Source: Thermodesulfobacteriota bacterium
GTDB taxonomy: Bacteria > Desulfobacterota > Desulfobaccia > Desulfobaccales > 0-14-0-80-60-11
Length of the DNA: 64,000 bases
Reading direction: 5' to 3'
Assembly (NCBI GenBank): GCA_049322315.1
Contig: JBMORF010000076.1
Coordinates: 73,221 to 137,220, forward strand
In this document: positions 8,028-63,239 of the stretch, one piece after another
Layout: the number at the start of each line of letters is the position of its first letter
Numbering within the stretch: the stretch's first letter is position 1
Program-made: the position numbers and the translations under genes
Notes under the pieces: model-generated
Seen by the model: the letters and a program-made list of their open reading frames with translations, nothing else
Database searches by the model: none
What the model was told of the DNA's origin: nothing

Positions 8028-8122
8028 TTAGGTGGCGTAAGCTGGTATGGACGCGGCAGAAATGATAGGACCCCGAGGGGATCAACCCACGGGGTCTCAA
8101 GTTAATTTAAGAAGGGCTGAAG

Positions 8123-15312: not shown

Positions 15313-15468
15313 TTAGAATACCGGGGTTATCTACTGGAATCTCTCTATCCCGCTGTTGTACGAAGAGGCCATCTCCCTGGGGAACCGCTAAAGGCTAAAT
15401 TTTATTAAAAAGAAGTTGGATTAAAGCAAAGGGGGTAACCGGAGGGCTAACCGCTTCTTCTTGGTGGT

Positions 15469-16450: not shown

Positions 16451-17218
16451 TTATCCCCCCGGGGCCGGAGTCTTAGGGGCGGCAAGGCGCATCCAGGCCA
16501 CCGAGAGCCAAACCTGGTGCAGGCGGATGGAGGCTACCGCCAAGACTTCTTGACTCCCCCAAGGAGCCGGGTCCGGACCGGGAGCCTCCAAATAGCCGCG
16601 CCAGCAGGGGCCGTGGTCCCCTTTACCGGTGCTTTCCACCCGGATCTGGCGGGGGCCGCAGAAATGGTAGCCGCAGCCCCGGGCTTTCACCACCGCTTCC
16701 TTGGCCGACCAGAGGAGGGCCGCGGCTTCTTCCCGGTCCCCTCCCGTCAGGGAGGTGGCCGCCTGCCACTCCCCGGTCCGAAAGACCTTGTGCACGGGAT
16801 AGGCCCCGGTAAACTCATAAGGTGAGGCCGCGTCCAAGCCGATCCAGGAACTGGTGGTGCCCAGGGCCGCCCACCATGCCCCCGCGCTCCAACTGAAAGA
16901 AACCCCGGGTCCGGGAGCGCCGTCCAGCAGAAGATGGGGTTTGCCCCAGCGGTTTTGCACCAGGGACAATTCCCGAGTCCTGCCGGAGGGGTAGTGTTCC
17001 TGGAGCAGGGCCGACAGGAATTCTTGTTTCATTTGCAAGCTAAAGGACCTGGGCCAAAGACGCCTGGAATTACTCCCGTTCTCCGGCAGTAAGGCCAGAT
17101 AAGCAGGCTCCCCATAGGGAGAATAGAGCGCCCCGCGGCTCACCCCTGGATGGTGGAGGTTCCAGGCCAGAGGGCCATAACTGTCCTGCTCCCTGATTGT
17201 TCCCGATACCTGCATCAT
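16451..17218 (-). CDS. Sfp-type 4'-phosphopantetheinyl transferase
   Basis: 'WIGLDAAS' (the GxD metal site) and 'LWSAKEAVVKARGCG' (the W..KEA..K motif). The start overlaps the PKS stop by 4 nt (atga). Confidence 0.75.
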   Translation of the reverse strand: MMQVSGTIREQDSYGPLAWNLHHPGVSRGALYSPYGEPAYLALLPENGSNSRRLWPRSFSLQMKQEFLSALLQEHYPSGRTRELSLVQNRWGKPHLLLDGAPGPGVSFSWSAGAWWAALGTTSSWIGLDAASPYEFTGAYPVHKVFRTGEWQAATSLTGGDREEAAALLWSAKEAVVKARGCGYHFCGPRQIRVESTGKGDHGPCWRGYLEAPGPDPAPWGSQEVLAVASIRLHQVWLSVAWMRLAAPKTPAPGG

Positions 17219-20200
17219 CCGGAAAACCAGCGCATCTGGAGGTTCCTTACCTGCATCAGGGGCTGGCCGTCGGCGTCGCTGGCTTGGGCGTCCCAGACCA
17301 TGCCCTTATCGTCATCGACGCGCAACCGGGCCTCCAGAATAATTTGCTCCTGATCCCGGCACTGACGGCCAATAACCATCTCCCCAATGGCCACGGGGAT
17401 AAAGGTGCGGTCATCCTCCTCATTTCTCATCTTCAGGTAAAAGCTGGTCATCTGCATCAGGCTTTCCAAGAGATAGGGAGCGTATTGGAGGCTGGGCGCT
17501 TGCAGGTGAGAAAAGTCCGGGTTGATCCGGTAGATGCCCGCGCCTCGCACTACTCCTGGCCCGGAGCCGTCCAAATGGCCCACCACCCTATATCGGCCTT
17601 GCATTTCCGTGTGCTCATCATACCATTCAATGATTTCTTCTAAATCCGCGGGACGAGTGTCCAACTCTTCCAGCTTCACGGGAAAATCCGGGAGATCGAG
17701 CCAGGGTAGTGCGCCTTCTCCCCCCATAAGCACTTGGGCCTGGTAATTGAGGGCTTTCTTCTCCAGTACCCTGCCCGTGGGAGAGATAAGCGGGGTTTCC
17801 ATGGTGAGGTCGCATACCGTCAACCCACCTTGATGTCGGCAACTTTGGCAGGTGATGTAGGAATCGATGGCCACTTCCACCGGGACCTCGATGACCTCGG
17901 TAAACTTTGCCTCTCTTACTCCCAACACCCGCAGGTAGGGATACAGGAGGCGGGATGCTTCCATAAAGGTCTCCAGGGCCATGATGGTGGAGACCAGGGG
18001 ATATTTTAAAAATTTGAAGGGTTTATGGTCGGCGATCCACAGGTCTTTTTCCTGGGAAAACGTCCGGTTCGCCCGTAACCACCCCTGGCGCAGGGAGAGC
18101 TGGGAAACGGCGTCGATCATGGGGAACTGTTCCGGGGCAAAGACCAGACTGCCCGTGGTGACGCCCGGCGAGGGCTGGGGTGCGCTTTCCGTATCCAGCC
18201 GGACGCTCTTGATCTCCGGGAGCCGGGACATGAACATCACCCAGACCTCGTCAGGCTCTCCCAGGAGCAGCTCCCGGCAGAAGAGTTCCGCGAGTTCCAC
18301 CGGCTCAAAATAACCGACCCCCATCTTTTCCAGGAAACGGCGCACCTCTTCGTTGTCGGCCATGCCGCTGCCGCTGATGGGGGGCAGCATCAGGGCCTTG
18401 CACCGGATTTCCGGATGGTTCTCCTTTATCTGACTCAGGAGGCCGGACATCATGCGGTTGGCCGCGGTATAGTTGGACTGCCCCCGGTTGCCCTGAATGG
18501 CCGCCGCGGAAGACAGGGCCACCAGGAAGCGCAAGCCGCTGGACCTGGCGGTGGTGAACAGGTTCCAGAGGCCCCGGAACTTGACGTCCAGGACGCTGGC
18601 GATATCATCGGCAGACAAGTCCGGTAGTAACCGGTCCCGTACCAGGCCGGCGGCGTGCACGATGCCATCGAGCCGGCCGTACTTGTCGAGGATTGCCCGG
18701 ACTGCGGCCTGCACCTGGGCCGGGTCCGTCACGTCGCAGGAGAGATAAGTGACCTCCAGGCCTGAGGCCCGCAGGTCTGCCAGGGTCTTCAGGACCTGCC
18801 GGGCCTGCAAGAGACGGGTAATCTCCCGGCCTAAATTATCCTGGGAGATGTCCGGCTGCTGCTGCATAATCTCCCAGCGCAGGGCTTTTTCCGCAGGCTC
18901 GTCTTCCTGGAGCAGTTCCACCAGCTTCGGCTCCAGGTCGATGGCGGTGCGGCCCAGGATGACCACCCTGGGTTTTAAGGGGGCCAGACCCTTGACCAAA
19001 TGGGGGGTGATGCCGTAACCGCCCCCGGAGAAGACCACCACGTCTTCCCGGTTCAAGGTCAGGCGCGGTTCCCCAGAAACCAAGGACAAAGCCATCCGGC
19101 CTTCCCTGGTCAGGAGCTGCCCTTGCTGATAGATGGTCTCCACCACCGGCTGTCGGGGGTCCAGGGCCTGGCGCAACGCCCGGGTCAGGTCCGCGTCCCG
19201 GTCCAGCCGCAGGGTGCGGCACAATACGGAGGGGTACTCTAAAGCGCTGCTCAGGAAGAGGCCCAGAAGCCCCTGGGCCAGCAGGCCCAACCCGCCGGTT
19301 TCCTCCCCGGAGCAATTAAGGGTGAGGGCAAATTTCTTCCGGGGCGCGGCCACCAAGGTCTGCATCAGGGAGAAAAAGCCCTGGACCAGGTGGGGCAGGT
19401 CCACCATTTCGTGGAGTTCTGGGGTCAGGCTGTCGTCCAGGAGAAAGACCACCCCGGCCAGGGAGTCATCTTCCTTAATCTTGGCCGCGGCCCGGGCGGC
19501 CTCTTCCGGCTGGCGCAGGTCGAAACCCGCCCCCTCCTGGCCCGGGTGAGACTCCAGGAAGGCGAAGGTCTTCGGAGTGACGCCAAAAATCTGGCGGAAG
19601 TGGTCGTTAATCCGTTCCCGCCATTCCGACTTCAGAGTGGGGCAGAACAGGGCCACGGTGTCGGCTGAGGTCAATTCCAGGGGTTGGGGCTCGAAGTCCG
19701 CCAGGGGCGCCGGATGGAAGGTCAGCCGCTTGAGCTTCTCCTCCTCAGGGACCTGGGGCTCCGGAGACTCCCGGCCGGGGGCGGCTGCAGCTTTGGCCGC
19801 CTGGGTCACGGCCCCCGGTTCTCCGCCCCGGGCCGCCACTTCGGCAATCTGGGTGGCCAGTTCCCGGACGGTGCGGACATCCATGAAGTCTTCCAGGCGG
19901 ATTTCAATGCCGAACTTGGTTTCGGCCGCGTCCATGATCACCGGCAGGCGGCTGGAGCGGATGGCCAGGTCGGTCCGCAGGTCCATGTCCGGCTCAATCT
20001 CATCCCGATCATAGCCGGTGGCCTCCATGATGAGGAGGATCACCTCTTCCAGATAGTCGGAGACCGGCTGGGCTCCGGCCGGGACGGGCACAGCCGTTGC
20101 GGCTGCCGGGGTTGGCAGGGCCGCCGCGGCGGCAAAAGCCGAGGTGAGGGCCGAGGCCTGGCTTCCGGCCATCTGCCGGGCTTGCAGCCACTGTTCCAGA

Positions 20201-23200
20201 CTGTCCTCGGAGAAATGGGGATCGTGCTCCCGGCGGATGGCCGCCAGCAGGCCCGGTTTCAAGAAGCGTCCGAAGCTTTCCAGGACAAAGGCGTTGATCT
20301 CCCGCTGGACAATGCGCTCCATAGGGTCCATCGGCGTTATCGGCGTCAGACCGGAGCGCGCCGTGCCGGACGTCGCCGGCGCCGAGGCCGGGCGCTGGCC
20401 CGGAACCGTGGGGAAGGAGATGAACTTCAATGGCTTAGGCGCGGTCAGATGACCACCGGCCACCAGTTGGGCGGTGGCCGTTTTCAGGGTCTGGCCTTCC
20501 GCTTCCGCCAGGCAGGTGGCAATACATCGGGGCGATTCCAGGGTTTCGGTGATGAGATTGCTGAGCGCGTCTCCCGGCCCCACTTCCAAAAAGACCCGGA
20601 TGCCGAAATCCTGCCATAAGGTGCGGACATTGCTGATCCACTGCACCGGAGATTCCAGGTGGGCCATGACGATCTTTTTGATGGCCTCCGGGTCATCGGG
20701 GAAGGGCTCCTTGGTGGTGTTGGAGATCACCGGGATCTTGGGAGCGTGGAAGGGCAAAGGCGTGATGAACGCCAACATATCGTCATGGATCACCCGCATA
20801 ATGGGAGAATGGAAGGACATGCTCACCTTCAGCTGGGTGGCCCGGTAACCTTCGGACTTGATCTCCAGCCGCAGGGCCTGGACGGTGTTAGTCTCTCCTC
20901 CCACCACTATCTGGTTGGGGGCGTTATAGTTGGTGATAAAGACGTCCTTTAAGGCCTTCACCTTCGCTTCCACCAACTCCAGGGGCATGTCGGTGGCGAT
21001 CATGATGCCGGGGTCCAGGTTCAGCAGGCAGGCCTTGTCCATGCAGATGGCCCGCTGGTTCACCAACCGGAAGCCGTCCTCAAAGGAAAATACTCCGGAG
21101 ATAGCCAGGGCCGTGAGTTCTCCCAGGCTGTGGCCGGCCATGGCCTTAGGCCTAATGCCCAGGGAGAGGAGGTACTGCACCATGGCGTATTCCAGGGTGA
21201 AGGTGGCGGGTTGCTGCCAGCGGGTCTTCTGGAGGTCCTCTTCCCGGTTATTAAAGATTAAATCCAAAAGATCGAAATCGGCGAAGGACGCGGCCTGGTC
21301 CATATACTCCCGGATGATGGGGAAGTTTTCATAGAGTTCCCGGCCCATGCCGGAGTATTGGGCCCCCTGTCCGGGAAAGACCAGGGCGAGGGGCGGGGGC
21401 GTGACGTTTTCCGGCCCCAGAAAGACTCCTTTGCGCCCCAAAACCCGCAGGGTCTTCTCCGGGAGAGGACCGTTAGGTGAGAGGGGTTCCAGTTCCTGAA
21501 TCCGGTCTAAGGCCTCCTTTTCGGAGTCGGCCGGCAGGGCCACCCGGTAGGGATGCCCGTCTAACGTAGTGCGGCCGCAAATGACGCCAATGGGGGGGGC
21601 GACTTCCGGGCCGGAAGCCTCAGCCCCGGTGGACTCCGGCGGCAGAGAGACCAAGACGGTGTCCCGGCTGTCCAGTGACTCCTCCAGATGCATGACATAG
21701 TTGGAGCCGCCGAATCCGAAAGAATTTACCTGGAGCCTACGGGGGCGTCCATTGGCGGCGGGCCAGTCCAGGGGCTCGGTGGCCACCATGAGCCCGGATT
21801 CCTCGATGCCCATGGCGGGATCATGGTTCCGGTAGTTGAGGGTGGGGGGAAAGACCCCGGCCTGCATGCCCGAGACGCCCCGGATGAGGCTGTTGATACC
21901 GGAGGCGCCCAGAGTGTGGCCGATTTGGGATTTAAAAGAGGATAACACGGTGCGGCTGTTGCCCTGGTAAAAGGTCTGGAGGGCCTTGACCTCTTCCACG
22001 TCCCCCTGGAAAGTAGCGGTAGCATGGCATTCAATCAGATCCACCGCCTCCGGGCCGTAAGGCAGGTCCTCAAAGGAGGTCCGGATGGCGATCTCCTGGG
22101 TGTCCCGGGAGGATTCCACCAGCCCCAGGTTGTTGTTGGAGGCGCCGGTGCCGGTGAGGTAGGCGTGCACCCGGGCGCCCCGGCGCCGGGCCACCGACTC
22201 CGACTCGATGACGATCATGCCTCCGCCTTCCCCCAGCACCATGCCGTCCCGGGTGAGGTCAAAGGGACGGCTGCCCTCTTCCGGGGGATGCTGCTTTCCG
22301 GAGATGCCCGCCAAGGCCCCCAGCGCCGAAAATTCCAGGAAGTGCATGGGGGTGAGATTCTCTTCGCCGCCGCCGACGATGGCCGCGTCGATGATGCCGT
22401 TGTTAATCATCTGGATGGCGCTGTACAGAGCCACCAGGGAGGTGGCGCAGGCCGCGGACACCGCAAAACTGGGACCTTGAAAGCCGTATTTATTGGAAAT
22501 GAAACCGCCGGCGGTGCAGTTGAGCCTCCCCAGCAGGGTGGTATCGTCAATGGCCAGCCGCCCGTCTTTCACCTCATTGGTGATGGCCTCAGCCAATTCC
22601 GGGGACAGGGAAACCACCCGCTGAATGGTGTGCAGGATTTCATCCCAGGCGCCCCGCACCAACAAGTCCATGAGGGTACCCGCGGCCTCGCCGGAATTCT
22701 GGGAGATAAGCACGCCGATGCGCTCCGGGGGGATGCCGGCGGAGAGGATGCCGGATTCCTCAATGGCCTTGGCCGCCAGCCACAGGGTAAGCCTGGTGGC
22801 GTGGGTCATGGTGCGGAAGTCCTGGGGCGCGATATCCAGGTCCTTCCGGGTGATGACTAAATGATGGAAGGCCCCCACCTGGCAATAGGTTTTCTCCGGG
22901 GTCCGGGGCCGGGGATGGAAAAAGAGTTGATGGTTCCAGCGCTCCGGCGGCACCAGGGTGATGCCGCTTTTCAAAGCCAGGCTGGCAGCCCACACCTCGG
23001 TGGGGGAGTTCCCCAGGGCGTTCACCAGGCTCATGCCGGTGATGGCGATCCTCTCCCCTTCGTCCCTCCGGGAGGTGGAGCCCCGATGCCGGGGTCCCGG
23101 GGTGGCGGTTTTTCGGGGGGCCCCCAATTCCGGCTGCTCTAAGCTAAGGGGACCCTCGGCCAACTCCCGGTGCAGCTCCGCCACGGATTGGACCTGGGTG

Positions 23201-25167
23201 ATGGCGCCGGCGCAGGCCCCGCTCATAAACTGGCCCTGGTCCAGGCACGCGGCCTCCGGCAACCGGGGGCCTTGAGGCCCGGCCGTGCCCCGGGCGGCTA
23301 CCAGCAGGCTGCCGGCGGCCAGGGTTTCCATGTCCCGGCGAAAGGAGGCTTCGTCCTGGCGGCCACACCTAAAATCTTGTTCCAGGGCGGCGATGCGGTC
23401 CATGGCCGGAGTTTTTAAAGACCGCACCCGGAGTCCGGAACATTCCCCGCTGATCACCGTGGACCCGGGGGCGGATTCCAGAATGAGCCGCTGATAGAGG
23501 GCGGATAAGGCCCCGGTGCTGACTATTTCCCGGGTGGCCAGGTAAGCGGTGCCCATTTGCAGGGCGTCGGCTCCCAGCATGGCGGCCATGGAGGCCGTCT
23601 CCCGGTGATAGATGCCCCCGGCCAGGATCAGCCGCCGTCCTTCCAGGAGTTGCGGTTCTTTACGCTTCAGTTCCAGGAGGATTTGGGCCAGGGTAAAGGT
23701 GGTGTGCTGGCCCACGTGGCCGCCGGCTTCATTGCCCTCCAGGATGAGGTAGCGCACCCCGGCCCCGCAGGCCAGGCGCAGCAGGTCCTCGTTGGGGGCG
23801 ATATAGATGGCTTCGATGCCCTGCTTTTGCAGCTCGGCCGCAAAGGATGGCTCCCCCGCGGCAATGACCGCGAAGCGGGGGCGATTTTGGGTAATCCAGG
23901 CCAGTTGGCTGTCCCGATGGGGATTTTCCGCCAGGGCAATGACATTGACCGCGTAAGGCAAATCCCCCATGACTTCTGGCAGGCGCTGAAGTTTTTGGGC
24001 CAAAGCCTCCCGGTCCATGAGCCCCAAAGCCACGGTGGGCAGGCCTCCGGCCTCGGCCACCGCCCGGGCGAATTCCGGGACATCGGTGATCCAGGACATG
24101 GCCCCTTGAATGAGGGGGTATTTACAGCCCATTTCCCGGGCCACGGGGCTTCTGCCCAAAATTTCCGCCTTTTCCTGGGCCTGGGCCAGTTGCCCCTTGA
24201 TGGCGGCCAGGAAGCCTGCCAGCGCTTGCTGGGTTCTTGAGCCGTAGTGGGCGGCAAAATCCTGGGCAAAGGCCGCCTCCACTCCCAGGGGAATGAGTTC
24301 CTCCCGGTGAAACCGGCTTTCCTGGACGGGGACGGCCATCCGGGCGACTTCCCGGGCAAAGGCCCGGCGGGATTCTCCAGTTAACTCGCCCCCGGCGGCC
24401 GCGGCCGCGTCCTGAACCTTCTTTACCGCCTGGGAGTTGCCCCGATTGAAAAAGCGGTGGGGAACTCCCAGATCGAGGCCCACCAATTGGGTGTGATCGG
24501 GACGCAAGCGGGCCAGCCCCTGGCGGGGGGCCTCTCCCAGGCCCACCAGGTCCGTCAGCCAATGGAGACTTTCCAAAACGATGCCCCGGGCGCCGGTGGC
24601 CAAAAAGGCCGCGGCTGCTTCCGGAGTAGCCACCCCTCCCCGGATTACCAGGGAAGGAGCGGACTGCCGCTGACGCAACCGGTCCCGGACCGCGGCATAC
24701 ATGGTGAAGATGGATTCACTGCCCACCCAGCCTGCGGCTTCACAACCTTTAAGGACCAGATGGGGGAGCTGGGGAAGATGGTCCAAGGTCTCCAGGATAA
24801 AAGGGGTATCGCTGAGAATGGGAAAGACTTCCACGTCAGGGCTGAAGGCCAGGAGCCTCTCCAGGGCCAGTGGAGGGGATTCATCCAGCACCAGGGGCTG
24901 AAATTCCACCCACAGCCCTTTGAGGGCCAGAGATTCCAGAAGCTCGGGAAGTAAGGGGTCTTTCAAGACCTCCGGGGCCACCTGGAGATGGACCGCTTCC
25001 CCAGGAAATTCAGCCTGCTTTAAGGCCGGAACTGCGGCGCTCAAAGTCAAGTGAGATATATCGACCAGGGCGATAGTCCCTGTATCCCGGGCCATTTGTG
25101 CCACTGCCGGCGAGAACTCTTCCAGCCGCCAGACCGTGGCAATTATCGGACGCATGGGTGCCAACAC
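17215..25167 (-). CDS. Single-module type I PKS / PUFA-synthase-like enzyme (TIM-like, ER(NPD), KS, AT, ACP, KR, DH)
   Basis: 2650 aa. Domain motifs are listed in the seven domain features that follow. No thioesterase, reductase or condensation release domain was recognised. Confidence 0.9.
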   Translation of the reverse strand: MLAPMRPIIATVWRLEEFSPAVAQMARDTGTIALVDISHLTLSAAVPALKQAEFPGEAVHLQVAPEVLKDPLLPELLESLALKGLWVEFQPLVLDESPPLALERLLAFSPDVEVFPILSDTPFILETLDHLPQLPHLVLKGCEAAGWVGSESIFTMYAAVRDRLRQRQSAPSLVIRGGVATPEAAAAFLATGARGIVLESLHWLTDLVGLGEAPRQGLARLRPDHTQLVGLDLGVPHRFFNRGNSQAVKKVQDAAAAAGGELTGESRRAFAREVARMAVPVQESRFHREELIPLGVEAAFAQDFAAHYGSRTQQALAGFLAAIKGQLAQAQEKAEILGRSPVAREMGCKYPLIQGAMSWITDVPEFARAVAEAGGLPTVALGLMDREALAQKLQRLPEVMGDLPYAVNVIALAENPHRDSQLAWITQNRPRFAVIAAGEPSFAAELQKQGIEAIYIAPNEDLLRLACGAGVRYLILEGNEAGGHVGQHTTFTLAQILLELKRKEPQLLEGRRLILAGGIYHRETASMAAMLGADALQMGTAYLATREIVSTGALSALYQRLILESAPGSTVISGECSGLRVRSLKTPAMDRIAALEQDFRCGRQDEASFRRDMETLAAGSLLVAARGTAGPQGPRLPEAACLDQGQFMSGACAGAITQVQSVAELHRELAEGPLSLEQPELGAPRKTATPGPRHRGSTSRRDEGERIAITGMSLVNALGNSPTEVWAASLALKSGITLVPPERWNHQLFFHPRPRTPEKTYCQVGAFHHLVITRKDLDIAPQDFRTMTHATRLTLWLAAKAIEESGILSAGIPPERIGVLISQNSGEAAGTLMDLLVRGAWDEILHTIQRVVSLSPELAEAITNEVKDGRLAIDDTTLLGRLNCTAGGFISNKYGFQGPSFAVSAACATSLVALYSAIQMINNGIIDAAIVGGGEENLTPMHFLEFSALGALAGISGKQHPPEEGSRPFDLTRDGMVLGEGGGMIVIESESVARRRGARVHAYLTGTGASNNNLGLVESSRDTQEIAIRTSFEDLPYGPEAVDLIECHATATFQGDVEEVKALQTFYQGNSRTVLSSFKSQIGHTLGASGINSLIRGVSGMQAGVFPPTLNYRNHDPAMGIEESGLMVATEPLDWPAANGRPRRLQVNSFGFGGSNYVMHLEESLDSRDTVLVSLPPESTGAEASGPEVAPPIGVICGRTTLDGHPYRVALPADSEKEALDRIQELEPLSPNGPLPEKTLRVLGRKGVFLGPENVTPPPLALVFPGQGAQYSGMGRELYENFPIIREYMDQAASFADFDLLDLIFNNREEDLQKTRWQQPATFTLEYAMVQYLLSLGIRPKAMAGHSLGELTALAISGVFSFEDGFRLVNQRAICMDKACLLNLDPGIMIATDMPLELVEAKVKALKDVFITNYNAPNQIVVGGETNTVQALRLEIKSEGYRATQLKVSMSFHSPIMRVIHDDMLAFITPLPFHAPKIPVISNTTKEPFPDDPEAIKKIVMAHLESPVQWISNVRTLWQDFGIRVFLEVGPGDALSNLITETLESPRCIATCLAEAEGQTLKTATAQLVAGGHLTAPKPLKFISFPTVPGQRPASAPATSGTARSGLTPITPMDPMERIVQREINAFVLESFGRFLKPGLLAAIRREHDPHFSEDSLEQWLQARQMAGSQASALTSAFAAAAALPTPAAATAVPVPAGAQPVSDYLEEVILLIMEATGYDRDEIEPDMDLRTDLAIRSSRLPVIMDAAETKFGIEIRLEDFMDVRTVRELATQIAEVAARGGEPGAVTQAAKAAAAPGRESPEPQVPEEEKLKRLTFHPAPLADFEPQPLELTSADTVALFCPTLKSEWRERINDHFRQIFGVTPKTFAFLESHPGQEGAGFDLRQPEEAARAAAKIKEDDSLAGVVFLLDDSLTPELHEMVDLPHLVQGFFSLMQTLVAAPRKKFALTLNCSGEETGGLGLLAQGLLGLFLSSALEYPSVLCRTLRLDRDADLTRALRQALDPRQPVVETIYQQGQLLTREGRMALSLVSGEPRLTLNREDVVVFSGGGYGITPHLVKGLAPLKPRVVILGRTAIDLEPKLVELLQEDEPAEKALRWEIMQQQPDISQDNLGREITRLLQARQVLKTLADLRASGLEVTYLSCDVTDPAQVQAAVRAILDKYGRLDGIVHAAGLVRDRLLPDLSADDIASVLDVKFRGLWNLFTTARSSGLRFLVALSSAAAIQGNRGQSNYTAANRMMSGLLSQIKENHPEIRCKALMLPPISGSGMADNEEVRRFLEKMGVGYFEPVELAELFCRELLLGEPDEVWVMFMSRLPEIKSVRLDTESAPQPSPGVTTGSLVFAPEQFPMIDAVSQLSLRQGWLRANRTFSQEKDLWIADHKPFKFLKYPLVSTIMALETFMEASRLLYPYLRVLGVREAKFTEVIEVPVEVAIDSYITCQSCRHQGGLTVCDLTMETPLISPTGRVLEKKALNYQAQVLMGGEGALPWLDLPDFPVKLEELDTRPADLEEIIEWYDEHTEMQGRYRVVGHLDGSGPGVVRGAGIYRINPDFSHLQAPSLQYAPYLLESLMQMTSFYLKMRNEEDDRTFIPVAIGEMVIGRQCRDQEQIILEARLRVDDDKGMVWDAQASDADGQPLMQVRNLQMRWFSG
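17218..18135 (-). other. PKS dehydratase (double hot-dog) domain, aa ~2345-2650
   Basis: 'LWIADHKPFKFLKYPLVS' has His2381 with Pro at +9, i.e. HxxxGxxxxP spacing with G replaced by K. It is the C-terminal domain of the protein. Confidence 0.6.
18235..19044 (-). other. PKS ketoreductase catalytic subdomain, aa ~2042-2311
   Basis: 'VVVFSGGGYGITPHLVKGLA' Rossmann motif, 'CDVTD', 'GIVHAAG' and 'SSAAAIQGNRGQSNYTAAN' (S..Y..N). A putative structural subdomain lies upstream, from about 19662. Confidence 0.75.
19825..20064 (-). other. PKS acyl carrier protein domain (single copy), aa ~1702-1781
   Basis: 'EPDMDLRTDLAIRSSRLPVIMDAAETKFGIEI'. Ser1738 occupies the DSL position, but the motif reads I-R-S-S rather than (G)xDS(L/I). 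Confidence 0.65.
20551..21390 (-). other. PKS acyltransferase domain, aa ~1260-1539
   Basis: 'LVFPGQGAQYSGMG', the active-site 'AGHSLGE' (Ser1347), 'SFHSPIM' and 'FLEVGPG'. Confidence 0.85.
21679..23055 (-). other. PKS ketosynthase domain, aa 705-1163
   Basis: 'ERIAITGMS'. Active-site Cys907 in 'AVSAACATSLVA' (codon 22447-22449). 'ECHATAT' and 'KSQIGHTLGASG' His motifs. 'NSFGFGGSNYVMHLEE'. Confidence 0.85.
23158..24141 (-). other. PKS enoyl-reductase domain, PfaD/PksE-type (nitronate monooxygenase fold), aa ~343-670
   Basis: 'CKYPLIQGAMSWITDVPEFARAVAEAGGLPTVALG', 'EGNEAGGHVG', 'LQMGTAYLATRE'. Confidence 0.75.
24178..25167 (-). other. PKS N-terminal degenerate TIM-barrel/NPD-like region (aa 1-330)
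   Basis: 'LVLKGCEAAGWVGSESIFTMY' parallels 'LILEGNEAGGHVGQHTTFTL' of the next domain, but the FMN/His motif is degenerate. Confidence 0.4.
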
Positions 25168-35578: not shown

Positions 35579-35623
35579 TGGATTATTCCTTTGTTGCTAA
35601 TTTGTTATCTCATATATATTTTT

Positions 35624-35680
35624 GGGCGAACCTTGTGTTCGCCCCGGAGTTCCAAGGGCGAACACAAGGTTCGCCCCTAC
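35624..35680. repeat. GEPCVRP-hairpin element, short form, copy A3
   Basis: gggcgaaccttgtgttcgcccc-N10-gggcgaacacaaggttcgcccctac, in the intergenic space. Confidence 0.85.
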
Positions 35681-56505: not shown

Positions 56506-57591
56506 ATGCGCGTCCCCCTTCAAAACCTTTTTGACCGCCTCCAGGATCAGAACGCGGTCTCCCCTCCCGGCTTACCTCTAAAGGCCCTGGCCGCGGCCCT
56601 GGCGGGGTTTTACGGTCTCGGGGCCAGAACCCGCCGGGCCCTCTATACCCAAGGCTGGTTGAAGGTGAAACGCCTGCCTGCGCCCGTAATCAGCGTGGGC
56701 AACCTCACCGTGGGGGGCACGGGGAAGACCCCCATGGCGGCCTGCCTGGCCCGGCTCTTACAGGGCCAGGGGCAAAAAGTGGCCATTCTCAGCCGGGGTT
56801 ACGGGGGCGCAGCAAAAAACGTCATCTGCATTTCTGACGGACGGCAGATCTACCAAAAACCTCCGGAAGTGGGGGAAGAGGCTTACTGGCTGGCCAAGAG
56901 CCTCCCCGGCGTGGCGGTGTATACCGGATTGTCACGCTATGCCGCGGGCCTGGCGGCCTGGCGGGAGATCCAGCCGGATTTTTTTATATTGGATGATGGC
57001 TTTCAGCACTTTCAACTGCATCGAGACCTGGACGTGGCGCTCCTGGACGCTCAAGCGCCTTTTGGCAACGGCTATCTCCTGCCCCGGGGTCCCTTAAGGG
57101 AGCCTAGGGCCACGCTGAAGACCGCCGGGGTGCTGGTCCTCACCCGTTTCCAGGCCGAGGCGCATCAGGACCGGCTGGCTTTCCTGCAACGGCAATTTCC
57201 CGGCAAAACCGTGCTCACTGCGGCCATCTTGCCCACCGGCGCCCGGATTTATTCGGAAGGCCGGGGCATTTCTCTGCCCAGTCTTAAGAACCAAAAACTC
57301 CTGGCCTTCGCGGGTCTGGCCCGGCCCCAAGTCTTTTCTGACACCCTCCGGGACCTGGGGGTGAATCTTTTAGGCTGCCGGGACTTCCCGGACCATTACG
57401 CCTTTCAAGCCCGCGACCTGGAGAGCCTGGTAAAAGAGGGCCAAACCCTGGGGGCCGCGGGTCTCATCACCACTGCCAAAGACTGGGCTCGCCTGGGGGA
57501 CAGATGGGATTGGCCCACGCCGCTTTATGTCCTGGAGGTGGAAGCGCGGCTGGATGGGGAGGGGGAAGAGAAAATATTAGAAATTTTGGGG
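56506..57591 (+). other. lpxK: Tetraacyldisaccharide 4'-kinase portion
   Basis: 'VISVGNLTVGGTGKTP' P-loop, 'ILSRGYGG' and 'ILDDGFQH'. About 362 aa, the normal LpxK length. Confidence 0.85.
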
Positions 57592-58938
57592 GATGCTGCC
57601 GGTTTCGGCTACGGGAAAGAAGCCTGTTCCTCTGGAAAGGGACATTCTTCTCGTAGGGGCGAACCTGGTGTTCGCCCCGGGCCTGGGCGAACACCAGGTT
57701 CGCCCCTACAAATTAACAGATGTTTAACTGTAACAAAGCATAATGCCTCGTATCCTAACATTGTGGCCGGGTTTGACTGCTTTCCCCGGCAGATACCTGA
57801 CATCACCTCCCCTGAACAACCCCTCCCTCTCCCCCCGGAGGTCAAGCAACGCTTTGGGGAATTGCGGGTGAGGGGCCAGGGGAAAATTGATCCGCAAAAG
57901 GTGCGGCGCCTCCTGGTCCGGGTCCCCAACTGGGTGGGGGACGCGGTCATGAGCCTGCCCACCCTGGCCGGGGTGCAGGCGCTCTTCCCCCAGGCGGAGA
58001 TTACGGTGCTGGCCGCACCCCGGGTGGCGCCCCTTTTTGCTGGCATCCCCGGAGTGTTCCAGGTGGTAGTCTATCCCGACGGAGGAGAAAAATGGCGTAT
58101 TCTTTGGCGTATGCGCCAGGGGCAGACAATTTACGAAAAACGAAAAACGAAAAACGAAAAACTTTCTTTCGATTTAGGTCTATCTCTCCCCAATTCCTGG
58201 GAAGCGGCCTTGGGCCTGTGGCTGGCCGGGGCCGAAACCCGGCTGGGCTACGCCACCCAGGGGCGGGGGCTTTTGCTCAACTTGGCGGTAACGGGGATGG
58301 ATTCTCTGGCGGGCCTGCACACGGTTTATTATCTCCTGGGGGTGCTCCAGGGCCTGGGCGGAGTGGATTTTATTGTCAGTCCCCGGCTTTATCTCCGGGA
58401 TGATGAAGTGCAGGAGGCGGCCGCGCTCTTAAAGACTAGTCAAGGGCAGGGACCCTGGGTGGGGCTGAGCCCGGGCGCGGCTTTCGGCCCGGCCAAACGC
58501 TGGCCCCCGGAGCGTTTCGCCGCTTTGGGTCAAGAGCTGCAAGCTGAATTCGGGGCCCGCCTGGTGCTGTTGGGCGGTCCGGAGGACCGGGAGACGGCCG
58601 CGAAGGTTAAGGAGCGGCTCCCCGGCGCCCTGGACCTGGTGGGCCGCACCACCTTGCGCCAGGCCCTGGGCGTGTTGACCCGGCTTTCCCTGTTAATCAC
58701 CAATGATTCCGGATTGATGCACGCGGCTGCGGCCTTGGGCGCCCCCCAGGTGGCCCTCTTCGGCTCCACCGACCCCACGGCCACCGGGCCGTTTACTGAT
58801 CGGGCCACGGTGCTCCGGCACCCCCTGCCTTGCAGCCCTTGTTTTAAGCGCACCTGTGACCTGGATTACCGGTGCCTGCTGGATATCAGCGTGCCGGAAG
58901 TCCTGGACGCGGCTAAGGGATGGCTGAAGGAAGGATAA
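56506..58938 (+). CDS. Continuous 810-aa ORF encoding LpxK then WaaF, joined by a ~100-codon non-conserved linker
   Basis: One open frame in the track. The two conserved halves are listed as the next two features. The linker contains the GEPCVRP hairpin A4. Confidence 0.7.
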   Translation: MRVPLQNLFDRLQDQNAVSPPGLPLKALAAALAGFYGLGARTRRALYTQGWLKVKRLPAPVISVGNLTVGGTGKTPMAACLARLLQGQGQKVAILSRGYGGAAKNVICISDGRQIYQKPPEVGEEAYWLAKSLPGVAVYTGLSRYAAGLAAWREIQPDFFILDDGFQHFQLHRDLDVALLDAQAPFGNGYLLPRGPLREPRATLKTAGVLVLTRFQAEAHQDRLAFLQRQFPGKTVLTAAILPTGARIYSEGRGISLPSLKNQKLLAFAGLARPQVFSDTLRDLGVNLLGCRDFPDHYAFQARDLESLVKEGQTLGAAGLITTAKDWARLGDRWDWPTPLYVLEVEARLDGEGEEKILEILGDAAGFGYGKEACSSGKGHSSRRGEPGVRPGPGRTPGSPLQINRCLTVTKHNASYPNIVAGFDCFPRQIPDITSPEQPLPLPPEVKQRFGELRVRGQGKIDPQKVRRLLVRVPNWVGDAVMSLPTLAGVQALFPQAEITVLAAPRVAPLFAGIPGVFQVVVYPDGGEKWRILWRMRQGQTIYEKRKTKNEKLSFDLGLSLPNSWEAALGLWLAGAETRLGYATQGRGLLLNLAVTGMDSLAGLHTVYYLLGVLQGLGGVDFIVSPRLYLRDDEVQEAAALLKTSQGQGPWVGLSPGAAFGPAKRWPPERFAALGQELQAEFGARLVLLGGPEDRETAAKVKERLPGALDLVGRTTLRQALGVLTRLSLLITNDSGLMHAAAALGAPQVALFGSTDPTATGPFTDRATVLRHPLPCSPCFKRTCDLDYRCLLDISVPEVLDAAKGWLKEG
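57653..57709. repeat. GEPCVRP-hairpin element, copy A4 (intragenic, compensated variant)
   Basis: gtaggggcgaacctggtgttcgcccc-N8-gggcgaacaccaggttcgcccctac. Both arms carry the matching change (ccttgtg to cctggtg, cacaagg to caccagg). Translated as RRGEPGVRPGPGRTPGSPLQ. Confidence 0.85.
57901..58938 (+). other. waaF: ADP-heptose:LPS heptosyltransferase II (GT9) portion
   Basis: From the GTG at 57901. 'LLVRVPNWVGDAVMSLPTL', 'LPNSWEAAL', 'GLSPGAAFGPAKRWPPERFAAL' and 'TNDSGLMHAAAALG' are collinear with E. coli WaaF. Confidence 0.8.
58133..58162 (+). repeat. Heptamer tract acgaaaa x4, inside the waaF coding sequence
   Basis: acgaaaaacgaaaaacgaaaaacgaaaaac is translated as ..YEKRKTKNEKL.., an insertion relative to E. 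coli WaaF between 'LREK' and 'RYDRAYVLPNSF'. Confidence 0.9.
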
Positions 58939-59498: not shown

Positions 59499-59562
59499 CT
59501 GCCGGGGATGAGAGAAAGACCTAAAAACAGTAAGGAGTCCAGGCGAAGAATTGCTGTATTTA

Positions 59563-59646
59563 AGTCCCCCTTTATAAAGGGGGATTAGGGGGATTTTTCG
59601 AGGACTTATAAAATCCCCCCTACCCCCCTTTAGAAAAGGGGGGAAT
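59563..59646. repeat. ccccc/ggggg-box repeat, inverted dimer, copy C4
   Basis: agtccccctttataaagggggattagggggattttt ... aaaatcccccctacccccctttagaaaagggggga. Confidence 0.8.
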
Positions 59647-59676: not shown

Positions 59677-60756
59677 ATGATTAGGCATCAACCCCGCATT
59701 TTAATGATCAAACTCAGCGCCTTCGGGGACGTGCTCCATACCCTGCCGACGCTGGAGGCCCTCAGGGCCGCGTTTCCGGAAGGGGACATCACCTGGCTGG
59801 TGGAAGCCCAATTTGCGCCGCTCTTAGAGGGACACCCGGCCTTGGATGCAGTCTGGGCCGTGCCCCGGGTGCGCCTGGGGCAAAAGGTCTCCCGGCGGGA
59901 GTTGCAGGACCTGTTCCGGCTGGCGCGCCGGGTGCGGACCACCCCCTTCGACCTGGTTATCGACCTCCAGGGGCTGCTGAAGAGCGCCCTGTGGACGTCC
60001 CTGGCCAAAAGCCCCCGGAAAGTGGGCTACGACCGCACCCGGGAAATGAGCTATCTGGCCCTGACGGAGCGGCTGCCGCCCTACGCCCGGGAGGCCCATG
60101 CGGTCTGGCGCTACCTGAACGTGGCCCGCTACCTGGGCGCCCCCCCTGCCCTGCCCAAGTTTAGATTGGGATTGAGGCCGGTTTTTCCTGATGCCTTATT
60201 CCAGACAGTCAATGTAGGGGCGAATCTTGTATTCGCCCAAACCCCAGGGCGAACACAAGGTTCGCCCCTACGAGGAAATACCTCTTTGGTGGCGCTTCAC
60301 CCCGGGGCGCGTTGGCCCACCAAAATCTGGCCGCCTTCGTCCTGGGCGCATTTGGCGGATTGGCTCATCCGGGAAAAAGGTTTGAGGGTGGTCCTCACCG
60401 GCAGCGGTGCCGACCGGGAACTGGCGGATCAAATTTGTGCGCAGATGCATGAGAAAGCCCTGAACCTGGCGGGACGAATGACCCTGGCGGAATTAGCCGG
60501 GGTCCTGCAACTAGCCAGGCTAGCCGTCACCGCGGACACCGGCCCCATGCACCTGGCCGCGGCTTTAGGCACCCCGGTGGTGGCCATCTTCGGCCCCACC
60601 GCGCCGGGGCGCAGCGGCCCCTTCGGGGCAGGACACCGGGTGGTGCGCTTAGGCGTGGCCTGCAGCCCCTGCTTTAAAAGACGCTGCCAGGAACCCCGGT
60701 GCCTGACGGACCTGGCCCCGGAGGCGGTGCAGGCGGTAGTGGAGAAATCCTTGTGA
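59677..60756 (+). CDS. waaC: ADP-heptose:LPS heptosyltransferase I (GT9) carrying an in-frame hairpin-repeat insertion
   Basis: 'ILMIKLSAFGDVLHTLPTLEALR', 'DLQGLLKSALWTSL', 'TADTGPMHLAAALGTPVVAIFGPT'. It is collinear with E. coli WaaC except for ..VNVGANLVFAQTPGRTQGSPLRGNTS.. (repeat A5). Confidence 0.8.
   Translation: MIRHQPRILMIKLSAFGDVLHTLPTLEALRAAFPEGDITWLVEAQFAPLLEGHPALDAVWAVPRVRLGQKVSRRELQDLFRLARRVRTTPFDLVIDLQGLLKSALWTSLAKSPRKVGYDRTREMSYLALTERLPPYAREAHAVWRYLNVARYLGAPPALPKFRLGLRPVFPDALFQTVNVGANLVFAQTPGRTQGSPLRGNTSLVALHPGARWPTKIWPPSSWAHLADWLIREKGLRVVLTGSGADRELADQICAQMHEKALNLAGRMTLAELAGVLQLARLAVTADTGPMHLAAALGTPVVAIFGPTAPGRSGPFGAGHRVVRLGVACSPCFKRRCQEPRCLTDLAPEAVQAVVEKSL
60214..60271. repeat. 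GEPCVRP-hairpin element, copy A5 (intragenic in waaC)
   Basis: gtaggggcgaatcttgtattcgccc-N8-gggcgaacacaaggttcgcccctac. The left arm has two substitutions. Confidence 0.85.
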
Positions 60757-60789: not shown

Positions 60790-60861
60790 TACAGCCTGGC
60801 TATAAACGGCTATATCACCGGCCAGACCTTGAACGTCAACGGCGGCTGGTACATGAGTTAG
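60790..60861 (+). pseudogene. C-terminal remnant of a FabG-like short-chain dehydrogenase
   Basis: My translation of the 23-codon open frame after a TAG is YSLAINGYITGQTLNVNGGWYMS*. 'ITGQTLxVNGG.YM' is the characteristic SDR/FabG C-terminus. No upstream body exists. Confidence 0.45.
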
Positions 60862-60866
60862 AGACA

Positions 60867-60946
60867 GTTTTCCGTTTACCGTTTTCAGTTTTCCGCCAAA
60901 AGCAGGAATGAAAGCTCTACGGAAAACGGAAAACGGATGAAAACGG
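60867..60946. repeat. Inverted heptamer-arm hairpin (ttttccg / cggaaaa)
   Basis: gttttccgtttaccgttttcagttttccg ... cggaaaacggaaaacggatgaaaacgg ends 7 nt before the trm112-like ATG. Confidence 0.75.
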
Positions 60947-60953
60947 AGGCGTT

Positions 60954-61124
60954 ATGGCCATCAGTAAAGAGCTTCTGGAGATTTTAGCCTGCCCCCAATG
61001 CAAGGGGGACATCCACTTGAATGACAAGGGCGACGGCCTCATCTGCGACAAGTGCAAATTGCTTTACGAAATCAAGGATGACATCCCCATCATGCTCATC
61101 GACGAGGCCAAACCCTTTAAATAA
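60954..61124 (+). CDS. Trm112/YcaR-family small zinc-ribbon protein (UPF0434)
   Basis: 56 aa, so below the track cut-off. My translation is MAISKELLEILACPQCKGDIHLNDKGDGLICDKCKLLYEIKDDIPIMLIDEAKPFK, with the CPxC...CxxC and 'IPIML.DEA' signature. E. coli ycaR lies near lpxK and kdsB. Confidence 0.75.
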   Translation: MAISKELLEILACPQCKGDIHLNDKGDGLICDKCKLLYEIKDDIPIMLIDEAKPFK

Positions 61125-61125
61125 T

Positions 61126-61213
61126 CGTTTTTCGTTTTTCGTTTTGCGTTTCCCGTAAATGAAAAAAGACCTTCCGGGAAGCACGAAAAACGAAAAACGA
61201 AAAACGAAAAACG
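61126..61213. repeat. Inverted heptamer-arm hairpin (cgttttt / acgaaaa x4)
   Basis: cgtttttcgtttttcgttttgcgtttcccg-loop-cgggaagcacgaaaaacgaaaaacgaaaaacgaaaaacg. The right arm ends 4 nt before the GT2 ATG. Confidence 0.85.
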
Positions 61214-61217
61214 TACC

Positions 61218-61982
61218 ATGCGGCTTTCAGTTACCGTCATCGCCCTCAATGAAGAGGCCAACATCGTCCCCTGCCTGGAGTCGGTGCGCTTTGCCGATGA
61301 GATCATCGTGGTGGATTCCGGCAGTACGGACCGGACCCTGGAGTTGGCCCGAAACTTCACGGACCGTATCTTTACCACCGATTGGCGGGGATTTGCGGGC
61401 GCCAAAAACTTCGCCCTGGACCAGGCCCGGATGGAGTGGGTCTTTTCCCTGGACCTGGATGAGCGGGTGCCGCCTGACTTGCAACAGGAAATACTAGAGG
61501 TGGTGCAAGCCGACGGACCCCTGGCCGCCTACAAAGTCCCCCGGAAAAACTATGTGGGCCGCCGCTGGATCAGGCATCTGGGCTGGTACCCGGATCATAC
61601 CTTGCGGCTCTTCCGCCGCGACCAGGGGCGCTTCCGGGAGCGGGAGGTGCACGAGGAAGTGGTGGTGCCCGGGCCGGTGGGTTTATTGCGCACTCCCCTG
61701 GAGCATTATTCTTATAACAACCTGGAGGAATATGCGGCGCGCCAGGACCGCTACGCCCGCCTGGCCGCGGGGGAGATGCGTAAAGCCGGACGCCGTCCCT
61801 TGCCCGGGGAACTCCTGTGGCGGCCGGCCCTCACTTTCTTGAATCTTTTTGTGCTGAAGCGGGGTTTCCTGGAAGGCAATTTGGGGTTAAAGCTGACGCT
61901 GCAAGCCAGCCGCTATAATTTCTTGAAATACCATTACCTGCGGGAATTCTTTCGTAGGGGCGAACCTTGTGTTCGCCCGTAA
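61218..61982 (+). CDS. Family 2 glycosyltransferase (LPS core, WaaE/KdtX-like)
   Basis: 'LSVTVIALNEEANIVPCLESVRFADEIIVVDSGSTDRT' and the 'SLDLDE' DxD-type motif. The last 7 codons and stop (..RRGEPCVRP*) come from repeat A6. Confidence 0.8.
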   Translation: MRLSVTVIALNEEANIVPCLESVRFADEIIVVDSGSTDRTLELARNFTDRIFTTDWRGFAGAKNFALDQARMEWVFSLDLDERVPPDLQQEILEVVQADGPLAAYKVPRKNYVGRRWIRHLGWYPDHTLRLFRRDQGRFREREVHEEVVVPGPVGLLRTPLEHYSYNNLEEYAARQDRYARLAAGEMRKAGRRPLPGELLWRPALTFLNLFVLKRGFLEGNLGLKLTLQASRYNFLKYHYLREFFRRGEPCVRP

Positions 61983-62013
61983 TCGTCCAGGGCGAACACA
62001 AGGTTCGCCCCCA
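61954..62013. repeat. GEPCVRP-hairpin element, copy A6
   Basis: gtaggggcgaaccttgtgttcgccc-gtaatcgtcca-gggcgaacacaaggttcgcccccac. The spacer supplies the GT2 stop codon. Confidence 0.85.
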
Positions 62014-62050
62014 CGAAAATAACTATTTTGATGAAAAATCGGCCTAATAC

Positions 62051-62247
62051 CAATACGGTTCACTTAAGCGGTTAGGAATCGGTGGGCAGTGCCCACCCTA
62101 CGTTATGTCATTCTGAACGGAGCGAAGCGGAGGGAAGAATCTCTGCTTTTCCAGGAAGTTAAAGATTCTGTGTTTGCCTCCGGCTCCCTCAGAATGACAT
62201 GTTAATTGACTTCCCTTCATTTTGATACGCTTAAGTGAACAGCATTG
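62051..62247 (+). mobile_element. 197-bp MITE, copy B2
   Basis: Same length, TIRs and internal hairpins as 45083-45279, with only scattered substitutions. Confidence 0.8.
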
Positions 62248-62281
62248 GGTCTAAGAACGCATCCCGAGGAACAGACTTTTA

Positions 62282-62362
62282 AGTCCCCCTTTTTTAAAGG
62301 GGGATTTAGGGGGATTTTCAGGCGCTTAGAAAATCCCCCCGGCCCCCTTTAGAAAAGGGGGA
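62282..62362. repeat. ccccc/ggggg-box repeat, inverted dimer, copy C5
   Basis: agtcccccttttttaaagggggatttagggggatttt ... aaaatccccccggccccctttagaaaaggggga. Confidence 0.8.
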
Positions 62363-62432
62363 GAAGATACCTCCTGTTACCAGGCCTCATGCTCTAAACG
62401 GAAGGCATTAAACTACGGAACTCAGGCAAATT

Positions 62433-63239
62433 ATGACAATCGATCCCAGCGCCAAAATCGCCCCGGACGTGGAACTGGCGCCGGACGTGGAGGTGGGTCC
62501 CGGAGTGATCATCGAGGGTCCCAGCCGCATCGGGCCGGGAAGCCGCATCCAGGCTCATGCCTATATCGGTCCTTATACCACCCTGGGCGCCAACAACCTC
62601 ATCGGCTTCGGGGCCATCATCGGCCATGAGCCCCAGGATTACGCCTTCAAAGGGGAAGAGAGCTATACCCTCATCGGTGACCACAACCTCATCCGGGAAT
62701 ACGTCACCATTCACCGGGGCACCAAGCCGGGGAGCGCCACCCGGGTGGGAAACCACTGTTTCCTCATGGGCTTAAGCCACATGGCCCACAACGCGGTCTT
62801 GGGAGACCATGTCATCGTGGTCAACGGCGCTTTGGTGGGGGGTTACGTGGAAGTGGCGGACCGGGCCTTCATCTCCGCCAACTGCCTGCTGCACCAGTTC
62901 ATCCGGGTGGGCACCCTGGTGATGATGCGGGGCGGAGCCCGGGCCTCCCGGGACCTGCCGCCCTATAGCAATATTGATGACACCCACGTGGTCAAGGGCG
63001 TCAACCTGGTGGGCCTGCGCCGGGCCGGTTTTAGCAGAGACCAGATCGGGCCGTTGCGCCAGGCCTTCCGGATCCTGTTCGGGCGGCGCACCAATCTGAA
63101 GCAAGCCCTGGAACAGGTGGAGGCCGAGGCGCCCATGACCAAGGAAGTGGCGCATCTGCTGGCATTTATCCGCGCCTCTAAACGGGGCGTGGCCATGGGT
63201 CCCAGGCAGGTCAGGACCAACGACGAAGATGAGTTTTAA
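62433..63239 (+). CDS. lpxA: Acyl-ACP:UDP-N-acetylglucosamine O-acyltransferase
   Basis: Left-handed beta-helix hexapeptide repeats, then the LpxA C-terminal helical region 'VKGVNLVGLRRAGFSRDQIGPLRQAFRILF'. Confidence 0.9.
   Translation: MTIDPSAKIAPDVELAPDVEVGPGVIIEGPSRIGPGSRIQAHAYIGPYTTLGANNLIGFGAIIGHEPQDYAFKGEESYTLIGDHNLIREYVTIHRGTKPGSATRVGNHCFLMGLSHMAHNAVLGDHVIVVNGALVGGYVEVADRAFISANCLLHQFIRVGTLVMMRGGARASRDLPPYSNIDDTHVVKGVNLVGLRRAGFSRDQIGPLRQAFRILFGRRTNLKQALEQVEAEAPMTKEVAHLLAFIRASKRGVAMGPRQVRTNDEDEF

Follow-up and report, generated by a model that had tools for sequence, protein, structure and literature searches.

How does a gene of lipopolysaccharide (LPS) biosynthesis come to carry a long palindrome in the middle of its reading frame, and what keeps it there? 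This question is raised by a waaC-like gene in a 64,000-nucleotide (nt) stretch of Thermodesulfobacteriota DNA (assembly GCA_049322315.1, contig JBMORF010000076.1, positions 73,221 to 137,220 of the forward strand), referred to here in its entirety as the window, in which the palindrome occupies positions 60214–60271. The combined evidence favors, with an estimated probability of about 0.78, an element of the repetitive extragenic palindrome (REP) type, or of its doublet form REPIN (REP doublet forming hairpin), that was inserted in frame at the hinge of the encoded enzyme long ago and has since been tolerated, trimmed and spread by recombination. An initial annotation of the same DNA had already proposed a tolerated intragenic insertion resembling a REP or a miniature inverted-repeat transposable element (MITE); both the REP-type character and the tolerance are supported by the present analysis, but the inserted unit was ~120 nt long and not the 58 nt of the palindrome alone.

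The palindrome consists of two 25-nt arms (92% complementary) with an 8-nt spacer between them (AAACCCCA, 60239–60246, + strand). As an RNA it is predicted to fold at −50.7 kcal/mol vs. −19.2 ± 2.9 for dinucleotide shuffles (z = −11), a stability reached by none of 200 shuffles, and the 58-nt hairpin repeat reported by the initial annotation is thereby confirmed. Each arm is, in turn, a compact unit composed of GTAG directly followed by an 8-bp stem and 5-nt loop (GGGCGAAC-CTTGT-GTTCGCCC), and both arms fit GTAG plus GGGCGAAY-N5-RTTCGCCC. The left unit (GTAGGGGCGAATCTTGTATTCGCCC, 60214–60238, + strand; stem-loop GGGCGAAT-CTTGT-ATTCGCCC) bears a compensated C>T/G>A pair and codes for VGANLVFA, and the inverted right unit (GGGCGAACACAAGGTTCGCCCCTAC, 60247–60271, − strand), the reverse complement of which (GTAGGGGCGAACCTTGTGTTCGCCC) equals the family consensus, encodes GRTQGSPL. 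Since each arm combines GTAG with a stem-loop and the two arms are inverted, the pair makes a REPIN-like doublet, and the palindrome as a whole can be viewed as the core of a REPIN-like non-autonomous mobile element, presumably mobilized by a REP-associated tyrosine transposase (RAYT).

A scan of the window with the arm motif yielded 11 occurrences grouped into six elements (starting at 7942, 15229, 35620, 57653, 60214 and 61954), vs. none in 100 dinucleotide-preserving shuffles. All six are doublets, with GTAG kept in 9 of their 12 units, and the other five copies match the waaC arms exactly or within three mismatches. Within these 64 kb, three copies are intergenic and the remaining three touch coding sequence; the repeat belongs to a dispersed family that enters further ORFs (open reading frames) as well, namely those at 57653 and 61954. 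The doublet proved to be the core of a larger imperfect palindrome of ~120 nt, with outer arms of ~30 nt that are imperfect inverted repeats (ATACCAATTCGCATTCAAAGGACGTTGAACT ... AGTATCTTTTAACTGCAACTCGGTAT) common to two intergenic full-length copies, one at 15198–15313 (+ strand, ~116 nt, reading outer arm, REP doublet, outer arm) and the other, in the opposite orientation and with one GTAG and one stem degraded, at 7911–8031 (− strand). These outer arms provide the element with terminal inverted repeats (ATACCAATTCGCA.. and ..TGCAACTCGGTAT) and are recognizable at other window copies and in the waaC inserts of relatives. The third intergenic copy (35620–35680, + strand) has an 11-nt spacer and has lost its left GTAG. 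Neither the waaC junctions nor the surroundings of the two full-length copies showed a convincing direct repeat indicative of a target-site duplication, apart from a possible TA at 15198/15313.

The two full-length copies are nearly identical and lie 7.2 kb apart in opposite orientations, with spacers that are exact reverse complements of each other (CGGAGCCAC, GTGGCTCCG), and the DNA between them could be invertible by recombination. The exact 25-nt REP unit also occurs once in each of six IMG/VR contigs classed as viral (L171–L176), among which L172 has an additional truncated second arm and at least three (L171, L174 and L175) have identical flanks. No Rfam family matched anywhere in the window at the gathering threshold, and string searches of the literature returned neither the DNA nor the peptide strings of the repeat. 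At the protein level, a word-indexed search with a 43-amino-acid (aa) two-frame REP peptide gave no candidates, and a comparison of the 30-aa window peptide with 1.84 billion protein representatives gave only four weak, repetitive matches.

The host gene (59677–60756, + strand) is an intact ORF for a 359-aa ADP-heptose:LPS heptosyltransferase of glycosyltransferase family 9 (GT9), as assigned from the ORF list, Pfam (Glyco_transf_9, PF01075, 2.3e-53), NCBIfam and Foldseek. Its product is 100% identical to P0001, a protein of an uncultured Thermodesulfobacteriota metagenome-assembled genome. Its best NCBIfam model is TIGR02193 (heptosyltransferase I; 186.9 bits, cut-off 185.3), and since TIGR02195 (heptosyltransferase II) passes too (156.9 vs. 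a cut-off of 134.6), the name waaC is reasonable, with a marginal assignment to type I or II. The initial description of this gene as being of an essential type is overstated, given that waaC is conditionally dispensable in E. coli K-12. The ORF, continuous over its 359 aa, crosses the palindrome without a stop (..TVNVGANLVFAQTPGRTQGSPLRGNTSLVALHPGARW..), as first described. E. coli WaaC (2GT1, 6DFE) aligns only with residues 7–148 and 204–324 of the query, i.e., on both sides of the insert, and query residues 149–203 stand opposite residues 147–180 of the WaaC chain, leaving ~21 extra residues without an E. coli counterpart. The REP doublet encodes residues 180–199, and the next strand (residues 204–208, LVALH) starts the C-terminal Rossmann lobe. 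Thus, the novelty of the added peptide relative to E. coli WaaC, its position at the lobe junction just before LVALHPGARW and the WaaC-like nature of both flanks all stand as originally proposed.

An AlphaFold2 model of the protein (mean pLDDT, or predicted local distance difference test score, of 79; predicted template modeling score, pTM, of 0.77) shows a pLDDT below 50 at residues 179–199, and the top Foldseek matches of this model are 3TOV, WaaF 1PSW and WaaC 6DFE/2H1H/2GT1, with template modeling (TM) scores of ~0.7 (GT-B fold). The peptide encoded by the insert is, therefore, predicted to form a disordered surface loop at the hinge of the two lobes, in agreement with the loop that structure prediction had been expected to reveal. 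The ratio of nonsynonymous to synonymous substitution rates (dN/dS) ranges from 0.12 to 0.35 in both lobes among insert-bearing pairs, and it is 0.15–0.16 (at a dS of ~0.45) between the window and L001, a related locus with a shared insert. Low dN/dS with the insert in place indicates that the host gene stayed under purifying selection, and, as far as can be judged from its sequence, the gene appears to be still functional. A split or inactivated gene was considered and rejected in view of the intact ORF and low dN/dS.

Comparison with orthologues (alignments of 31 and then 65 sequences) revealed both states of this site. Most orthologues have a 17-residue hinge between RLGL and LHPGARW (e.g., TPVLPESLAALDRDLVV). 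The DNA encoding FRLGL..LHPGARW measures 87 nt at the empty sites of L002, L168 and L169 vs. 156 nt in the window, L001 and L081, and 165–210 nt in the filled sites of L003 and L161–L167. The empty site sought by the initial annotation is, thus, found in orthologues at 70–81% identity (P0005/L168, P0010/L002, P0038/L169 and more than 25 others). On the other side, at least 10 other orthologues have this very codon junction occupied by the element, their inserts measuring 22–46 aa, and its presence in 12 independent assemblies means that it is not an assembly artefact. The filled sites agree on the left junction (after P(D/E)A(L/F)) and on the orientation of the asymmetric outer arms, and they have homologous AT-rich flanks coding for ..KxxAFDDELV..; in L170, the right outer arm is retained and the core is absent.

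The insert in the window amounts to 84 nt (12 + 58 + 14 nt), with a net gain of 23 codons. Its left outer-arm remnant (60202–60213, + strand, CAGACAGTCAAT) encodes QTVN; it is missing from the empty-site locus L002, and its homologues are the more extended left flanks (..CAAACAGGGATTAAAT) in L161 and L165 as well as the intergenic outer arms. On the right, a 14-nt remnant is retained (60272–60285, + strand, GAGGAAATACCTCT), and the rest of that arm has been deleted together with the native xPPDRP linker codons. By these sequence comparisons, the window copy is a trimmed derivative of the ~120-nt element. The string TTG.TG is common to both deletion endpoints, which suggests a microhomology-mediated deletion, and this is probably where the trimming took place. 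An opposite change in length is observed in the waaC insert of P0004 (L163, 1126–1142), the spacer of which has grown to 17 nt by tandem duplication (CTGAGTCTG CTGAGTCT), adding three loop residues.

Conservation across ten filled waaC sites, expressed as mean pairwise identity, is unevenly distributed: 91% for the REP arms, 80% for the host gene at all positions and 68% at third codon positions, 55–59% for the outer arms and 36% for the spacer (same strand). GTAG is kept in 18 of the 20 arms of these copies. The stems within the arms are 98.8% paired, with three pairs (four cells) changed on both sides, a result matched by none of 500 shuffles; for the long arm-to-arm helix, the pairing is 94.4%, and 26 of 500 shuffles are equally good. 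The two substitutions in the left arm of the window copy, taken at first for drift, are indeed present, but they are partners within the same 8-bp stem (GAAC/GTTC to GAAT/ATTC), and random decay was, on this ground, rejected as their explanation. The compensated pair is synonymous in the window (AAC>AAT, GTG>GTA). L003 and L167 have the identical pair change in their right unit, and there it is non-synonymous (T>I, G>D); L166 shows another compensated pair, and the C>T/G>A variant of the unit is also found at another locus in L082. This pattern shows that the constraint acts on the nucleic acid and not on the peptide. The uniformity of the REP stems most likely originates from family dynamics, with a cognate RAYT (TnpA-REP) recognizing the units and/or other copies converting them. 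A comparison of the window with L001 shows less divergence in the insert than anywhere else in the gene (2 mismatches per 60 nt vs. a mean of 7.7): its 84 nt differ at 2 positions, where the gene-wide rate predicts ~11 (Poisson P ~1e-3), and these two are precisely the C>T/G>A stem pair.

The insertion is old, polymorphic and shared across a clade, and not private to the source genome. Its presence and absence require at least eight steps on each of 100 bootstrap neighbor-joining trees, and the insert-bearing P0006 and P0007 lie at distances of only 0.066 and 0.074 from P0031 and P0038, respectively, both of which have the empty site. P0006 is a mosaic, which resembles the insert-bearing P0008 over ~aa 160–245 around the insert and is nearly identical to P0031 elsewhere, and the empty-site relatives of P0006 keep native codons (SGDRPW) that are lost in the P0006/P0008 allele. 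Taken together, these two observations identify at least this case as allele transfer by homologous recombination, and not as excision. Trimmed architectures are shared within sub-clades (P0006 with P0008, P0009 with P0013). The waaC spacers are alike once inversion is allowed (mean distance 2.8 vs. 5.0 to the spacers of other copies), the window spacer resembling the reverse complement of CGGGGGTT, and this relatedness lends mild support to one origin with flipping of the loop. Overall, the favored history is one old insertion, with trimming and recombination at later times, and the argument for a single origin rests on the common junction and orientation, the shared trimmed architectures and the relatedness of the spacers.

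According to this scenario, an ancestor within a clade of uncultured Thermodesulfobacteriota (Syntrophales-like) would have gained one copy in the hinge-coding DNA of its GT9 gene. The copy could have persisted by landing in frame and by virtue of a core that, whichever way it is oriented, has two of its three frames open, so that read-through is likely at any place under selection for an open frame (the full-length copies are open in only 1–2 of six frames). With a hinge that tolerates extra residues, the element would be translated as VGANLVFA-xxx-GRTQGSPL in a disordered surface loop. Later in-frame deletions, probably at microhomologies, may have trimmed it differently in each lineage, and the insert-bearing allele may have moved between lineages via homologous recombination, which would produce the scattered presence and absence on the gene tree. 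Throughout, RAYT recognition and/or conversion from other copies would have kept the REP units uniform.

Several observations weigh against this reading, and some of them fit an alternative in which the hinge is a hot spot of recurrent site-specific insertion and seamless excision by a transposase, as is known for IS200/IS605-type Y1 enzymes. The scattered distribution, with its eight or more state changes on every bootstrap tree and pairs only 0.066–0.074 apart that differ in state, would fit such repeated insertion as well, as would the low same-strand identity of the spacers and the fact that all empty sites are exactly 87 nt long (the ancestral length) and free of scars. In every lineage, the arm sequences stay close to the family consensus, the waaC inserts fall into two core subtypes (loop CTTGT/ACAAG vs. 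CTGGT/ACCAG, both also present elsewhere in the window), and a second site, the 3' end of a GT2 gene, is filled in the window and in L082 at slightly different junctions. Moreover, shared flanks are weak proof of a single insertion because they belong to the mobile unit, and a common orientation could also result from selection for an open frame, given the few open frames of full-length copies. Nevertheless, we consider a hot spot unlikely, since all ten inserts agree in junction codon as well as in outer-arm orientation, derived trimmed architectures are common to the sub-clades P0006/P0008 and P0009/P0013, the SGDRPW-retaining empty relatives of P0006 are not derivable by excision from the P0006/P0008 allele, P0006 itself is a demonstrable recombinant mosaic, and the waaC spacers are more alike than those of other copies. 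No transposase was found in the window or the fetched loci: a motif search and a Pfam scan of 30 ORFs of 93–446 aa detected no RAYT (Y1_Tnp, PF01797), and the gene tables of related loci list no RAYT gene either. The same negative result also counts against the insertion history that we favor, a RAYT, encoded by a single-copy gene that typically has the same REPs as flanks, being the defining partner of a REPIN, although 64 kb are uninformative for such a gene; the modest quality of the structural model (mean pLDDT 79) is a further point on this side.

The near-invariance between the window and L001 extends to the spacer and the outer-arm remnants. This extension is not explained by family-level homogenization of the REP units; a function at this locus or a recombination tract of recent origin could be responsible. 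If the hairpin or the peptide were functional and selected in place (e.g., as a translational pause, an mRNA stability or processing signal, a protein-binding DNA site or a membrane-interface loop), one would understand the excess of arm identity over the host gene (91% vs. 80%), the preservation of stems by compensatory and in part non-synonymous changes, the low divergence of the entire 84-nt insert between the window and L001, the high stability of the fold (−50.7 kcal/mol) and the clustering of three copies within 4.4 kb of one LPS gene cluster. This explanation appears improbable, as many close orthologues lack the insert without any sign of compensation, divergence of the spacer and outer arms in the wider set equals or exceeds the neutral rate, the trimming differs in each lineage, the peptide is predicted to be disordered, no Rfam family is matched, and family-level homogenization equally predicts the conservation of REP units; an intrinsic terminator was tried and rejected, as no T-run follows the hairpin on either strand. 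There is a small but appreciable chance that the doublet is more than a passenger, being a selected nucleic-acid structure (a REP docking or processing site or a structured mRNA at the boundary of folding units) that circulates as an allele. Selection in place would explain why the doublet is better preserved than the gene around it and why its stems change in compensatory, sometimes non-synonymous, ways, as well as the invariance of the spacer and remnants between species at a dS of ~0.45. The suggestion that there is no real insertion at all, i.e., that the segment is a native hypervariable linker with a chance resemblance to the repeat, an assembly artefact or part of a pseudogene, is effectively refuted. 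Hinge length does vary naturally between 17 and 20 residues among distant orthologues, and metagenome assemblies can be mis-joined at repeats (L177 breaks at another repeat), but the arms match five other window copies exactly or within three mismatches where none are expected, the insert occupies an identical position in twelve independent assemblies, and the ORF is intact with a dN/dS of ~0.15–0.3 in both lobes.

The waaC insert is one of the three window copies, all touching coding sequence, located within 4.4 kb of the LPS core cluster. The second (57653–57709, + strand) is another in-frame read-through (..RRGEPGVRPGPGRTPGSPLQ..), positioned in the linker of an 810-aa ORF (56506–58938) that fuses LpxK with a WaaF-like heptosyltransferase II, the GT9 part of which scores as type II. 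This LpxK-WaaF fusion is unbroken in five lineages (766–810+ aa) and has a hypervariable inter-domain linker, which in the window is occupied by the REP element and, in L001 and L003, by another repeat. The third copy (61954–62014, + strand) overlaps coding sequence: the final codons of the GT2 gene have given way to it (..FFRRGEPCVRP*), the stop of this gene is supplied from the spacer of the element, and the native overlap of GT2 with lpxA is broken. These two genes overlap or abut in L001, L003, L165 and L167, and in the window they are parted by 491 nt of repeats (61948–62439) comprising the REP doublet and a second repeat family; judging from this arrangement, their translational coupling has probably been lost in the window.

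The second repeat family is ~85 nt long (GTCCCCCTTTATAAAGGGGGATTAGGGGGATTTTT...AAAATCCCCCCTACCCCCCTTTAGAAAAGGGGGG) and is represented by two intergenic copies in the window (59560–59645 and 62278–62361) as well as by copies in L001 (2037–2125 and 3881–3966) and L003 (2154–2240). In the LpxK-WaaF linker of L001 and L003, it is read in frame as ..LSPPFxKGDLGG...PPxPPLEKGG... A third kind of repeat, runs of GAAAAC(G) and their complement CGTTTTC, occurs in the window at 58128–58165, ~37170, 60860–60940, 61126–61200 and 63272. One of these runs lies in frame within the WaaF domain (..YEKRKTKNEKLS..), with ENRKQKTEN conserved in relatives, and others flank a small Trm112-like gene (60954–61124). 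Further away, a 2650-aa ORF (17215–25167, − strand) adjoins genes for a phosphopantetheinyl transferase, an epimerase, a sulfotransferase and an adenosine 5'-phosphosulfate (APS) kinase, possibly a polyketide or lipid synthase cluster.

Among known systems, the closest parallel is provided by GTAG-tagged REPs, their dimers and the intragenic GTAG and CGTC REPs, many of which are dimers encoding 20–30 aa in known proteins and were argued to occupy flexible linkers or loops (Di Nocera et al., 2013; PMC3733652). A REP unit of the GTAG type is an imperfect palindrome of 20–40 nt that bears this tetranucleotide at its 5' end. TnpA-REP enzymes recognize the GTAG tag together with the stem-loop (PMC8266576). 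The family described here resembles GTAG REPs and REPINs in its 25-nt units with GTAG directly followed by a short palindrome, in the pairing of inverted units at a short distance, which allows them to fold into one larger hairpin, and in the upkeep of stems by compensatory change, as expected if a transposase reads GTAG plus the stem-loop. It differs in that the REP pair is central in a ~120-nt palindrome with 7–11 nt between its units, whereas in Pseudomonas REPINs a spacer of ~60–70 nt separates two terminal REPs. GTAG REPs are dispersed, multi-copy and mostly intergenic or located at 3' ends; the window family has six copies in 64 kb, three of them intergenic. Differences include the Thermodesulfobacteriota host and a sequence family absent from the papers searched, as well as the LPS glycosyltransferase host gene vs. 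the DNA-repair genes emphasized in PMC3733652.

Rickettsia palindromic elements (RPEs) offer a functional likeness, as they are in-frame palindromic repeats in functional genes with the peptide on the protein surface and with insertions shared across orthologues of different species, but they measure ~100–150 bp, belong to other sequence families and occur only in Rickettsia. Some RPEs correspond to CGTC-type repeats (PMC3733652). RPE-1 is thought to be constrained as a peptide, unlike the waaC insert, which is constrained at the DNA/RNA stem. MITEs such as ERIC, Correia/NEMIS and those of Anabaena (PMC10969869) likewise are small non-coding palindromes with imperfect terminal inverted repeats that may be read through or may provide a new C-terminus and stop codon, as does the copy at 61954. 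The present element departs from them in having no evident target-site duplication and a GTAG stem-loop core that points to a Y1 (HUH) enzyme and not to a DDE transposase.

Overall, the waaC insert represents a known kind of event, and what is new is its sequence family, the phylum of its host and the gene that it entered. Most documented in-frame palindromic insertions come without a comparative series, whereas this locus combines clean empty sites, more than 10 independently evolving filled sites trimmed in frame to varied lengths and one recombinant allele. Such a series measures what a translated REP conserves, namely the stem-loop of its unit and GTAG, and not the peptide, the spacer or the outer arms. 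For genome annotation, it means that several repeat families are read through in the LPS genes of these uncultured Thermodesulfobacteriota, and predicted proteins contain strings (VGANLVFA/GRTQGSPL, RGEPCVRP/GEHKVRPY and SPPFxKGDLGG, for example) that represent translated repeats and not protein motifs. The practical impact is modest, in that the existing picture of in-frame repeats is refined and no new one is opened.

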